Source of the DNA: Escherichia coli
GTDB taxonomy: Bacteria > Pseudomonadota > Gammaproteobacteria > Enterobacterales > Enterobacteriaceae
Length of the DNA: 64,000 bases
Direction: 5' to 3' (one strand)
Assembly: GCF_013122565.1 (NCBI RefSeq)
Contig: NZ_CP053258.1
This document shows positions 17,329 through 35,068 of this stretch, one piece after another. Positions within the stretch are counted from its first letter, which is position 1. Each line of letters begins with the position of its first letter. The position numbers and the translations under genes were made by a program. Under the pieces are notes generated by a model. It was not told the origin of the DNA, searched no databases, and saw only the letters and a list, made by a program, of their open reading frames with translations.

Positions 17329-17389
17329 AATCTCGCGCTAACAACCTGGAATCGAGCCGTCATACTACGGCGCAACGCCCTATAAAGTA

Positions 17390-17481
17390 AACGATGACCC
17401 TTCGGGAACTTCAGGGTAAAATGACTATCAAAATGTGAATTGTAGCTGACCTGGGACTTGTACCCGGGTCGGTATTTTTTT
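17390..17481 (+). ncRNA. graL: greA leader / GraL-type attenuated small transcript (approximate bounds)
   Basis: Promoter-like TAAAAT upstream and a stem (GACCTGGG...CCCGGGTC) followed by T7 within the greA 5' leader; coordinates approximate. Confidence 0.4.
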
Positions 17482-24132: not shown

Positions 24133-24219
24133 GCCGAGGTGGTGGAATTGGTAGACACGCTACCTTGAGGTGGTAGTGCCCAATAGGGCTTACGGGTTCA
24201 AGTCCCGTCCTCGGTACCA
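24133..24219 (+). tRNA. leuU: tRNA-Leu (anticodon GAG)
   Basis: 87 nt GCCGAGGTGGTGGAATTGGTAGACACGCTACCTTGAGGTGGTAG...GGTACCA; long variable arm, CCA end encoded; immediately 3' of secG. Confidence 0.95.
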
Positions 24220-28001: not shown

Positions 28002-28078
<77 letters not shown>

Positions 28079-28200
28079 CTTTCCCTTAGAGTCCTTTTTC
28101 AAATATACTGTGAAGACTTCGGCCTTCGTAGTGGGATTTGAAAAAATCCTTCTGGAAAGTGCTCCAGACCGCAGTTGCGGTTATAGGGTTCAGTTATATA

Positions 28201-28226
28201 AAGCCCCGATTTATCGGGGTTTTTTG
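28201..28226 (+). terminator. First terminator/attenuator between metY and rimP
   Basis: AAGCCCCGATTTATCGGGGTTTTTTG. Confidence 0.75.
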
Positions 28227-28247
28227 TTATCTGACTACAGAATAACT

Positions 28248-28268
28248 GGGCTTTAGGCCCTTTTTTTA
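28248..28268 (+). terminator. Second terminator/attenuator between metY and rimP
   Basis: GGGCTTTAGGCCCTTTTTTT. Confidence 0.65.
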
Positions 28269-28764: not shown

Positions 28765-30252
<1,488 letters not shown>

Positions 30253-30276
30253 TAAACTGTAGCAGGAAGGAACAGC

Positions 30277-32949
30277 ATGACAGATGTAACGATTAAAACG
30301 CTGGCCGCAGAGCGACAGACCTCCGTGGAACGCCTGGTACAGCAATTTGCTGATGCAGGTATCCGGAAGTCTGCTGACGACTCTGTGTCTGCACAAGAGA
30401 AACAGACTTTGATTGACCACCTGAATCAGAAAAATTCAGGCCCGGACAAATTGACGCTGCAACGTAAAACACGCAGCACCCTTAACATTCCAGGTACCGG
30501 TGGAAAAAGCAAATCGGTACAAATCGAAGTCCGCAAGAAACGCACCTTTGTGAAACGCGATCCGCAAGAGGCTGAACGCCTTGCAGCGGAAGAGCAAGCG
30601 CAGCGTGAAGCGGAAGAGCAAGCCCGTCGTGAGGCAGAAGAATCGGCTAAACGCGAGGCGCAACAAAAAGCTGAACGTGAGGCCGCAGAACAAGCTAAGC
30701 GTGAAGCTGCTGAACAAGCGAAACGTGAAGCTGCGGAAAAAGACAAAGTGAGCAATCAACAAGACGATATGACTAAAAACGCCCAGGCTGAAAAAGCCCG
30801 CCGTGAGCAGGAAGCTGCAGAGCTCAAGCGTAAAGCCGAAGAAGAAGCGCGTCGTAAACTCGAAGAAGAAGCACGTCGCGTTGCTGAAGAAGCACGTCGT
30901 ATGGCGGAAGAAAACAAATGGACTGATAACGCGGAACCGACTGAAGATTCCAGCGATTATCACGTCACTACTTCTCAACATGCTCGCCAGGCAGAAGACG
31001 AAAGCGATCGTGAAGTCGAAGGCGGCCGTGGCCGTGGTCGTAACGCGAAAGCAGCGCGTCCGAAGAAAGGCAACAAACACGCTGAATCAAAAGCTGATCG
31101 TGAAGAAGCACGCGCAGCAGTACGTGGCGGTAAAGGCGGAAAACGTAAAGGTTCTTCGCTGCAGCAAGGCTTCCAGAAGCCAGCTCAGGCCGTTAACCGT
31201 GACGTTGTGATCGGCGAAACTATCACCGTTGGCGAACTGGCGAACAAGATGGCGGTTAAAGGCTCTCAGGTCATCAAAGCGATGATGAAACTGGGCGCAA
31301 TGGCAACCATCAACCAGGTTATCGATCAGGAAACCGCACAGCTGGTTGCTGAAGAGATGGGCCACAAAGTTATCCTGCGTCGTGAAAACGAGCTGGAAGA
31401 GGCGGTAATGAGCGACCGTGACACGGGTGCTGCGGCTGAACCGCGCGCGCCGGTTGTGACCATCATGGGTCACGTTGACCACGGTAAAACCTCTCTGCTG
31501 GACTACATTCGTTCAACGAAAGTGGCCTCTGGCGAAGCGGGCGGCATTACCCAGCACATTGGTGCATACCACGTTGAAACTGAAAACGGCATGATCACCT
31601 TCCTGGACACCCCGGGGCACGCCGCGTTTACTTCAATGCGTGCACGTGGTGCGCAGGCAACGGACATCGTAGTCCTGGTTGTTGCTGCCGACGACGGCGT
31701 AATGCCGCAGACCATCGAAGCAATCCAGCACGCGAAAGCGGCGCAGGTACCGGTGGTGGTTGCAGTGAACAAGATCGATAAACCAGAAGCCGATCCGGAT
31801 CGTGTTAAGAACGAACTCTCCCAGTATGGCATCCTGCCGGAAGAGTGGGGTGGTGAAAGCCAGTTCGTACACGTATCTGCGAAAGCGGGTACCGGCATCG
31901 ATGAACTGCTGGACGCTATCCTGCTGCAGGCGGAAGTTCTGGAGCTGAAAGCGGTACGTAAAGGTATGGCGAGCGGTGCGGTTATCGAATCCTTCCTCGA
32001 TAAAGGTCGTGGTCCGGTTGCTACCGTTCTGGTACGTGAAGGTACTCTGCACAAGGGCGATATCGTTCTGTGTGGCTTCGAATACGGTCGTGTTCGTGCG
32101 ATGCGTAACGAACTGGGTCAGGAAGTGCTGGAAGCGGGTCCGTCCATTCCGGTGGAAATCCTCGGCCTGTCCGGCGTTCCGGCTGCGGGTGATGAAGTTA
32201 CCGTTGTACGTGACGAGAAGAAAGCGCGTGAAGTTGCACTCTATCGTCAGGGTAAATTCCGCGAAGTTAAACTGGCGCGTCAGCAGAAATCTAAACTCGA
32301 GAACATGTTTGCCAACATGACCGAAGGCGAAGTTCACGAAGTGAATATCGTCCTGAAGGCAGACGTACAGGGTTCTGTGGAAGCGATCTCCGACTCCTTG
32401 CTGAAACTGTCTACTGACGAAGTTAAAGTGAAGATCATCGGTTCTGGCGTAGGTGGTATCACCGAAACCGACGCCACCCTGGCTGCGGCGTCCAACGCCA
32501 TCCTGGTTGGCTTCAACGTACGTGCTGATGCCTCTGCACGTAAAGTGATTGAAGCGGAAAGCCTGGATCTGCGTTACTACTCCGTCATCTATAACCTGAT
32601 CGACGAAGTGAAAGCGGCGATGAGCGGTATGCTGTCTCCGGAACTGAAACAGCAGATTATCGGTCTGGCGGAAGTTCGTGACGTGTTCAAATCGCCGAAA
32701 TTTGGTGCCATCGCAGGCTGTATGGTTACCGAAGGTGTGGTTAAACGTCACAACCCGATCCGCGTTCTGCGTGACAACGTGGTTATCTATGAAGGCGAGC
32801 TGGAGTCCCTGCGCCGCTTCAAAGATGACGTTAACGAAGTCCGTAACGGTATGGAATGTGGTATCGGCGTTAAGAACTACAACGACGTCCGCACTGGCGA
32901 TGTGATCGAAGTATTCGAAATCATCGAGATCCAACGTACCATCGCTTAA
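30277..32949 (+). CDS. infB: Translation initiation factor IF-2
   Basis: 890 aa ORF; charged repeat N-terminal region, G-domain [12 protein letters not shown] / DTPGH / NKID. Confidence 0.97.
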
Positions 32950-32966
32950 GGTTTTTAGGGTTCCAT

Positions 32967-33036
32967 GCGGGATAAGGCGTTTACGCCGCATCCGGCATGG
33001 ATTGCATGATGCGACGCTGGCGCGTCTTATCAGGCC
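32967..33036. repeat. REP palindromes in infB-rbfA intergenic region
   Basis: GCGGGATAAGGCGTTTACGCCGCATCCGGCA and GATGCGACGCTGGCGCGTCTTATCAGGCC. Confidence 0.75.
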
Positions 33037-34511: not shown

Positions 34512-34877
<366 letters not shown>

Positions 34878-34894
34878 TTCTTGCGAGTTTCAGA

Positions 34895-34921
34895 AAAGGG
34901 GGCCTGAGTGGCCCCTTTTTT
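34895..34921. terminator. rpsO terminator, palindromic with U-runs on both strands
   Basis: AAAAGGGGGCCTGAGTGGCCCCTTTTTT. Confidence 0.8.
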
Positions 34922-35068
34922 CAAGCTGACGGCAGCAATTAACTGGAAACTAATGTATTGTTGCTATGAATGATCTTCCGTTGCAGAGGTTCGCGCGGCT
35001 AATGAGAGGCTTTACCCACATAGAGCTGGGTTAGGGTTGTCATTAGTCGCGAGGATGCGCAGAAGATC
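34895..35068 (-). ncRNA. sraG: SraG-type small RNA antisense to the pnp leader (bounds approximate, by position)
   Basis: Known position of SraG in the rpsO-pnp intergenic region on the opposite strand; the palindromic rpsO terminator supplies a minus-strand 3' end; no independent sequence proof of 5' end. Confidence 0.3.

Follow-up and report, generated by a model that had tools for sequence, protein, structure and literature searches.

The infB gene lies in a window of 64,000 nucleotides from Escherichia coli (the whole stretch of DNA that we analysed; contig NZ_CP053258.1), and it raises the question of how many proteins are made from its one reading frame. A GTG and an ATG stand in frame within its 5′ third, at the end of a stretch that encodes charged repeats. 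We find that this is an E. coli-type infB, in which one mRNA and one reading frame almost certainly give rise to three IF2 proteins by independent initiation. The gene and its primary ribosome-binding region are as follows.

30277–32949, plus strand: full-length infB coding sequence including the stop codon (IF2-alpha or IF2-1, 890 amino acids), assigned from the list of open reading frames, identity with K-12, TIGR00487 and Pfam.

30264–30272, plus strand: Shine–Dalgarno (SD) region of the primary start (AGGAAGGAA), assigned from the sequence and from a predicted duplex of −6.5 kcal/mol with the 3′ end of 16S rRNA.

When the encoded protein was compared with IF2 of E. coli K-12 the two were found to be 100% identical over 890 amino acids, and all 19 differences between the infB genes at the DNA level are third-codon and synonymous. 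The product matches the NCBIfam IF-2 equivalog TIGR00487 with 988 bits over residues 306–889 (cutoff 424 bits), and Pfam finds IF2_N twice (best-scoring copy at residues 314–364), IF2_assoc (residues 56–94), the GTPase domain GTP_EFTU, IF-2 and C-terminal domains. Residues 95–305, which hold the internal starts and the repeats, had no Pfam family match in this search of the infB product. We conclude that infB of the window is an orthologue with the bacterial IF2 core. The order of genes around it is argG (minus strand), metY, rimP, nusA, infB, rbfA, truB, rpsO and pnp, as in K-12; a tRNA scan places metY (tRNA-fMet) at 28002–28078. Rfam matches in the operon are the rimP leader, the S15 leader and SraG, and no RNA family was found by Rfam inside infB itself. 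The gene is covered over at least 80% of its length in 5423 of 5425 complete E. coli genomes, in every case at 95% identity or above, and the best match of the window to the complete E. coli genomes of our collection is 98.7% identical over 24 kb.

The two internal starts define two further coding sequences that share the stop codon of infB.

30748–32949, plus strand: nested coding sequence of IF2-beta (IF2-2, 733 amino acids), starting with GTG at codon 158; assigned from the sequence, a K-12 RefSeq coding sequence of 2202 nt, mutation g474c, an fMet peptide and conservation.

30769–32949, plus strand: nested coding sequence of IF2-beta′/gamma (IF2-3, 726 amino acids), starting with ATG at codon 165; assigned from the sequence, a K-12 RefSeq coding sequence of 2181 nt, mutation t494c and a peptide.

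The initial annotation had placed these starts at codons 158 and 165, and counting from the ATG at 30277 this is exact: GTG occupies 30748–30750, ATG occupies 30769–30771, and both are in frame. It had also identified them with the known start sites of the shorter IF2 isoforms, and here the K-12 coding sequences, the published mutations and the published N-terminal peptides all agree with it. The RefSeq record of K-12 MG1655 (NC_000913.3) carries three infB coding sequences of 2673, 2202 and 2181 nt with one shared stop, and their starts are codons 1, 158 and 165. The accompanying remark that a single-ORF annotation hides the nested proteins therefore holds for genomes annotated with PGAP, which show one infB coding sequence, but not for the K-12 reference, which shows three.

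Experimental evidence for both starts has been published. In E. coli the mutations g474c and t494c abolish IF2-2 and IF2-3 (Madison et al., 2012; PMC3334882), and it can be seen that the mutated nucleotides g474 and t494 correspond to positions 30750 and 30770 of the window. The same work reported that the short forms are still expressed when the deleted sequence stops 32 nt before the start of IF2-2 (PMC3334882). Published profiling of initiation sites points to the same place, as infB was one of three genes with specific Ribo-RET initiation peaks at known internal sites (10.1101/520783), and the TRAINSPOTTER study of 2026 names ‘GUG158 and AUG165’ as the infB internal starts (PMC13245402). 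A supplementary table of that study lists Met-initiated N-terminal peptides covering residues 158–175 and 165–175 (PMC13245402); both match the sequence encoded in the window, so that the comparison with published isoform N-termini, which the initial annotation had proposed, gave no codon mismatch. Methionine at position 158, where the DNA encodes valine, is the signature of GUG being decoded by initiator tRNA. A homologous infB proteoform pair has been detected in Salmonella (PMC11005335), and IF2 isoforms have been reported for Enterobacteriaceae (PMC1780047). Within E. coli, initiation at the internal infB codons has been shown in K-12, BW25113 and BL21 (PMC3334882, 10.1101/520783, PMC13245402). 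Since the 71-nt internal site of the window is identical to that of BW25113, the published internal initiation should carry over, and we expect by this analogy that ribosomes also initiate at 30748 and 30769 in the source strain.

The presence of an in-frame NTG codon is uninformative on its own, as there are nine of them in the first 300 codons of infB. What sets codons 158 and 165 above chance is their conservation and predicted accessibility together with the published experiments. For the conservation we scanned one-genome-per-species contigs with a 10-residue IF2 peptide, which gave at least 120 loci, of which 97 had alignable N-terminal regions; the species sampled are an arbitrary subset of the matches and are related to one another, so the counts that follow are not counts of independent events. 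Among the 77 Enterobacterales in the listed matches the column of codon 158 holds GTG in 71, TTG in five and AAA in one, and none of them has GTA, GTC or GTT at this column, although GTG makes up only 30% of the valine codons in the same infB genes. All five leucine replacements are TTG, the sole leucine codon among the standard bacterial starts ATG, GTG and TTG; their carriers among the listed matches are Sodalis/Acerihabitans, one Enterobacter and one Pantoea. The single AAA belongs to an Arsenophonus endosymbiont with a shortened N-terminus. In 20 Alteromonadales-type relatives among the listed matches, column 158 holds assorted non-start codons. Judged from these alignments, codon 158 appears to be restricted to codons that can serve as starts, more tightly than the amino acid would require, and this codon-level conservation excludes a chance origin of GTG158.

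The conservation extends to the codons around the start, which delimit one further feature.

30733–30759, plus strand: conserved footprint of the internal initiation region (codons 153–161), with a weak SD-like GGA at 30735–30737; assigned from synonymous conservation.

Codon choice is invariant at 153 (GCG), 154 (GAA), 157 (AAA), 158 (GTG) and 159 (AGC) in 76 Enterobacterales among the listed matches, and the synonymous sites from −15 to +12 of GTG158 are nearly frozen across the Enterobacterales in that set. Within the first 400 codons this footprint belongs to the three windows of lowest synonymous entropy, together with codons 5–7, beside the primary start, and codons 22–24. A single codon is used throughout in only seven of the 154 columns that could be compared; 153 GCG and 158 GTG, which flank the site, are among the seven. 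The footprint also falls within the 32 nt that sufficed in the deletion of Madison et al. Of 5425 complete E. coli genomes, 5297 carry the 71 nt that surround the internal starts at 100% identity. ATG165, the second start, is kept less well: it is present in 49 of the 77 listed Enterobacterales species and absent from 28, among them all five Photorhabdus, Hafnia, Morganella, Moellerella, Trabulsiella and several Pantoea. Its replacements are AAA, GCA, GCG, ACA and similar codons, or GTG or GTA, and the spacing between the two starts is eight codons in most of the listed species and seven in E. coli. The third isoform is therefore not universal in the order.

Local unpaired probabilities were computed over the nusA–infB transcript, taking a 30-nt window around each ATG, GTG or TTG in any frame. 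By this thermodynamic prediction, which ignores translating ribosomes, ATG165 ranks first, GTG158 second and the primary ATG fourth among the 120 NTG codons of infB. Predicted pairing with the anti-SD sequence is weaker at the internal starts, at −3.5 and −2.3 kcal/mol compared with −6.5 at the primary start. In 71 of 76 Enterobacterales, compared with 2 of 20 Alteromonadales-type relatives without the GTG (among the listed matches), the site falls within the most accessible 5% of windows, and on these predictions the internal initiation region would be unstructured and accessible. A conserved RNA structure at the internal site was considered and rejected, as the only helices that RNAalifold proposed for 23 species were weak and lay upstream, with a covariation term of −0.35 kcal/mol and one compensatory pair; over the GAAAAAG tract and the 80 nt that follow it, no consensus pairs were predicted in those species. 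The relevant RNA property of the site is thus its predicted lack of structure. The other in-frame NTG codons (17, 37, 45, 59, 92 and 209) were rejected as starts on poor accessibility and SD scores, including ATG209, which lies within the interval 30580–30910 that had originally been singled out.

These observations also bear on whether the short isoforms come from a separate, shorter transcript, made from a promoter or a processing site inside infB, instead of from internal initiation on the full-length mRNA. The operon does have several promoters and processing sites, and P4 yields a monocistronic infB mRNA according to the available text of PMC6511841; the available record of a 1995 paper, whose subject is better expression of IF2 in cells deficient in RNase E, hints at cleavage of the infB mRNA (pmid 7575538). 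However, in the available text the P4 mRNA encodes IF2 and not a 5′-truncated form (PMC6511841), we found no sigma-70-like promoter in 30100–31100 (0.3 expected by chance), and a footprint from −15 to +12 combined with high accessibility is what an internal ribosome-binding site would predict. A processed transcript, even if it contributed, would use the same start codons. We consider a separate transcript very improbable as the source of the short forms, and independent initiation on the full-length mRNA is almost certainly their origin; none of our data speak against it. In the same interval there were three terminator-like hits, all on the minus strand and within the chance expectation of 1.8 ± 1.5. 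Two minus-strand open reading frames, 30426–30755 and 30436–31080, were rejected as antisense genes, as they have no Pfam match and are composition artefacts that arise from the reverse complement of coding sequence rich in GAA, GCN, CGT and AAA.

The internal starts stand at the end of a tandem array, which is followed by a second block of repeats.

30586–30729, plus strand: repeat block 1, six in-register 24-nt units (codons 104–151) of the form A[EAQ][EQ]xA[KRQE]RE; assigned from TRF, a register table and autocorrelation.

30730–30753, plus strand: a seventh, degenerate unit (codons 152–159, AAEKDKVS), which holds the internal ribosome-binding region and the GTG; assigned from its register with the array.

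30829–30912, plus strand: repeat block 2 (codons 185–212; RKAEEEAR, RKLEEEAR, RVAEEAR, RMAEE) with periods of 24 and 21 nt; assigned from TRF and the register table.

TRF reports arrays of 24-nt period at 30585–30641 and 30628–30742, and further arrays of 24 nt at 30829–30878 and of 21 nt at 30865–30912. The seventh unit, GCTGCGGAAAAAGACAAAGTGAGC (AAEKDKVS), is in register against GCTGCTGAACAAGCGAAACGTGAA; AAEQAKRE is one of the six units of block 1. For residues 100–157 the identity between residues eight positions apart is 0.66 compared with 0.20 in composition-preserving shuffles (z = 8.6; none of 2000 shuffles reached 0.66), and DNA identity at a lag of 24 nt in the block 1 region is 0.71 compared with 0.38 in codon shuffles. 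The charged, imperfect tandem repeats described in the initial annotation are therefore real by both TRF and autocorrelation, but the unit given for them, EAE(E/R)xA(K/R)REA, is too strict as written: used as a regular expression it fits only two units, at residues 111 and 119, and it takes a looser 8-residue consensus, [EA]A[EAQ][EQK]xA[KRQE]RE, to bring six units into register, at 103, 111, 119, 127, 135 and 143.

The individual arrays match their TRF consensus at only 65–88%, from which it follows that the duplications are old. This speaks against the idea that the repeat block is a slippage-prone, hypervariable locus of the contingency type that alters the length of IF2 between strains. 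That idea can draw on the variation between genera, where among the listed matches the length of the block (helix 1 in the model below) changes mostly by whole 8-residue units: helix 1 is 62 amino acids long in 39 species and 70 in eight, and in the Arsenophonus endosymbiont the repeat block has 36. Between strains of E. coli, however, the near-complete coverage of infB at 95% identity or above has already been described, the 71-nt query that was identical in 5297 genomes (30727–30797) takes in the last unit and the sequence just 3′ of it, and the IF2 protein equals that of K-12 in spite of the 19 synonymous changes. Slippage is to our mind even less probable than a separate transcript, and we conclude that the repeats are an old array maintained at the level of the protein and not a slippage tract.

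The region was also modelled, with AlphaFold2 run on IF2 residues 1–300 from a 40-sequence alignment (mean pLDDT 74.8); the dedicated solved structure in this region covers residues 2–50 only (1ND9). The model gives the helices of the IF2N subdomain (6–13, 17–26 and 39–52), a beta-hairpin at 58–92, a continuous helix at 96–157 with a pLDDT of 78–90 across the block, and a second long helix at 165–216; between the two long helices, residues 158–164 form a low-confidence, non-helical break. From these limits, repeat block 1 would form helix 1 and block 2 would form part of helix 2. In the model helix 1 ends just before the N-terminus of IF2-beta, and helix 2 begins with the N-terminal residue of IF2-beta′. 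The composition of residues 100–215 is 31 Glu, 28 Ala, 17 Arg, 12 Lys and 11 Gln out of 116, so that Glu, Ala, Arg and Lys together account for 88 of the 116. Like charged single alpha-helices of the ER/K type, this segment is predicted to form long helices that are rich in E, R and K and have no hydrophobic core, and on the model it would count as a long, continuous charged helix of that type, although it contains more alanine than classic ER/K motifs do and PMC11838494 describes the region as intrinsically disordered with some helical content.

Such a break would be a plausible protease-accessible site, yet that the short forms arise by proteolytic clipping in it, with the GTG and ATG merely incidental, is the least credible reading of all and is excluded for K-12, since the peptide beginning at 158 starts with methionine where the genome encodes valine and requires initiator-tRNA decoding of GUG (PMC13245402), point mutations in both codons eliminate the short forms (PMC3334882), the short forms persist in a deletion that lacks the alpha start (PMC3334882), Ribo-RET finds initiating ribosomes at the internal site (10.1101/520783), and the choice of GTG or TTG at 158 is conserved far past any need of the amino acid.

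Under independent initiation, ribosomes that start at AUG1 would make IF2-alpha (890 amino acids), and those that start independently at GUG158 or AUG165 would make IF2-beta (733 amino acids) or IF2-beta′/gamma (726 amino acids). The internal site would act as a weak-SD, structure-free, A-rich landing pad, GCGGAAAAAGACAAA-GUG-AGCAAUCAACAAGACGAU-AUG, and this pad appears to be the degenerate last unit of the 24-nt repeat array. The array itself probably encodes the long charged helix, made of Glu, Ala, Arg and Lys, of the alpha-only Domain I. As both starts lie in the break between the two predicted helices, the short isoforms should drop Domain I cleanly, with the IF2N/N1 subdomain, the beta-hairpin region and helix 1, and all three isoforms would retain the complete universal IF2 core (residues 306–889). 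Domain I (157 amino acids) occurs in the alpha form alone and binds NusA (PMC12297416), published work has linked the region to NusA binding as well as to phenotypes under DNA damage and in the cold, and loss of residues 1–157 lowers phase separation (PMC11838494).

Recruitment of the 30S subunit would then depend on accessibility together with the weak GGA. We infer that this GGA, at −13 to −11 and made by the invariant third-position G of codon 153, is a weak but well-spaced SD. The invariant GCGG can be read in two ways, either as the weak SD (through GGA) or as one arm of a small upstream hairpin with CYGC, in which 30707–30710 are predicted to pair with 30733–30736; no compensatory changes were seen for that hairpin by RNAalifold in the 23 species. 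A broader reading, which we put forward tentatively and rate at somewhat under an even chance, is that the whole footprint (the invariant GCGGAAA at −15 to −9, the frozen AAA-GUG-AGC and the conserved non-structure) may mark a tunable site of specific recognition that sets the alpha to beta ratio, consisting of a weak SD and an S1 or standby pad, possibly with the hairpin, and evolved from a decayed repeat unit. On the same reading the ancestral and order-wide feature would be the beta start, as GUG or, in at least three lineages, as TTG; AUG165 would be a dispensable add-on which about a third of genera, for example Photorhabdus, Hafnia, Morganella and several Pantoea, have lost or never acquired.

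The internal starts of infB and its three isoforms are already fully known. They are a textbook case, displayed as nested coding sequences in the K-12 annotation, and the finding opens no new question. It is of use only as a plausibility check and as a reminder for annotation, in that the single infB coding sequence shown by pipelines such as PGAP stands for three IF2 proteins in the cell. In published work the isoforms have distinct roles, with the alpha-only Domain I binding NusA and affecting DNA-damage tolerance, growth in the cold and phase separation. Our comparative results add modest detail to this picture, in that the sampled Enterobacterales carry a start-competent codon at 158, keep the second start less strictly and show frozen synonymous sites.

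The closest known system is infB of K-12 itself (b3168; IF2-alpha, -beta and -beta′, also called IF2-1, -2 and -3 or alpha, beta and gamma), which encodes the same protein from the same operon with starts at codons 1, 158 and 165; the 71 nt of the internal initiation region are the same in the window and in K-12 derivatives, BW25113 included. The window differs from K-12 infB by the 19 synonymous substitutions, and the surrounding 24 kb is at most 98.7% identical to the complete E. coli genomes in the collection. The infB genes of other Enterobacterales (among them Salmonella, Citrobacter, Klebsiella, Enterobacter, Serratia, Pantoea and Photorhabdus) have a homologous GTG, the invariant upstream GCGGAAA and an accessible region, and likewise carry 8-residue charged repeats upstream of the GTG. 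They differ, among the listed matches, in a spacing of mostly eight codons, in the loss of ATG165 from 28 of 77, in the use of TTG in five and in a variable number of repeats. Among unrelated proteins, clpB, mrcB, cheA and clpA likewise yield a full-length and an N-terminally truncated product from one open reading frame by independent in-frame initiation, and their internal starts were found by the same Ribo-RET and N-terminomics methods. Unlike these four, infB has two internal starts close together, and they lie at the end of a coding repeat array.

It can be seen that the ribosome-binding region of IF2-beta, together with its GTG start (codon 158 of infB), is itself a seventh, degenerate copy of the 24-nt coding repeat (window 30730-30753), which keeps register with the rest of the array. 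From the sequence it looks as if the internal IF2-beta start originated in a decayed repeat copy. Immediately 5' of the unstructured initiation region, RNAalifold predicted a small hairpin (window 30707-30736), in which an invariant GCGG (30733-30736) pairs with CYGC (30707-30710); within the RNAalifold alignment there were no compensatory pairs in this hairpin, and substitutions were one-sided only.

Of 154 columns, 7 used a single codon in all 76 Enterobacterales among the matches listed. These were codons 153 and 158, along with the following five, each with the same codon in 76/76 of these Enterobacterales:

infB codon 4, within window 30286-30294, GTA
infB codon 6, within window 30286-30294, GTA
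infB codon 25, window 30349-30351, GCT
infB codon 74, window 30496-30498, ACC
infB codon 112, window 30610-30612, GCG

Codons 4 and 6, both GTA, adjoin the primary infB start, and synonymous variability was low at codons 22-24, again in the Enterobacterales among the matches listed.

We found that the internal starts varied across species. The spacing from GTG to the IF2-beta' ATG (codon 165) is 7 codons, NQQ-DDM, in E. coli (window 30751-30768) and a few relatives, and 8 codons, NQQTDDM, in most Enterobacterales among the matches listed (infB loci L003-L122); this one-codon difference falls inside the inter-helix linker. In five species among the matches listed, TTG (Leu) replaces GTG at the IF2-beta start column (L010, L013, L077, L081 and L096, from Acerihabitans, Enterobacter sp. 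BIGb0383, Pantoea sp. RIT-PI-b and two Sodalis). This change alters the amino acid while retaining a start-competent codon, and it arose in at least three lineages. At locus L048, from the Arsenophonus endosymbiont of Aleurodicus floccissimus, IF2 has lost approximately 26 residues of the first repeat block, and the locus carries AAA at the GTG158 column and a gap at the ATG165 column; judged on these features, the endosymbiont probably makes a single IF2 isoform.

The repeat units also contain out-of-frame GTGs (cGTGa). Among all internal NTG triplets, the GTG at 30677 shows the strongest SD-like pairing (-5.6 kcal/mol). Its accessibility is moderate (rank 5/120), and it begins a candidate 24-codon +1-frame ORF (window 30677-30751) whose terminal TGA overlaps GTG158. 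Long stop-free ORFs also lie opposite infB and nusA:

30426-30755, (-) strand, antisense ORF
30436-31080, (-) strand, antisense ORF
28951-30420, (-) strand, antisense ORF

The first two, opposite the repeat region, had no Pfam match, and we rejected them as genes, as they are consistent with an artefact of base composition, the sense strand being rich in GAA/GCN/CGT.

In the spacer between infB and rbfA (window 32966-33036, + strand), an Rfam match to naRNA4/CssrE, a nucleoid-associated RNA derived from REP elements, reached 70.5 bits, where the gathering score is 59.5. RNA elements expected of E. coli were also present:

17359-17480, greA leader
24133-24219, tRNA-Leu(GAG)
28167-28267, rimP leader
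34550-34664, S15 leader
34894-35065, (-) strand, SraG sRNA

Against 5,426 complete E. coli genomes, the best identity was 98.7% for the 24 kb at window 20000-44000 and 99.6% for infB DNA. The DNA probably comes from a lineage of Escherichia or Shigella outside this set of genomes. Despite the DNA divergence of the surrounding 24 kb, the IF2 protein is exactly that of K-12.
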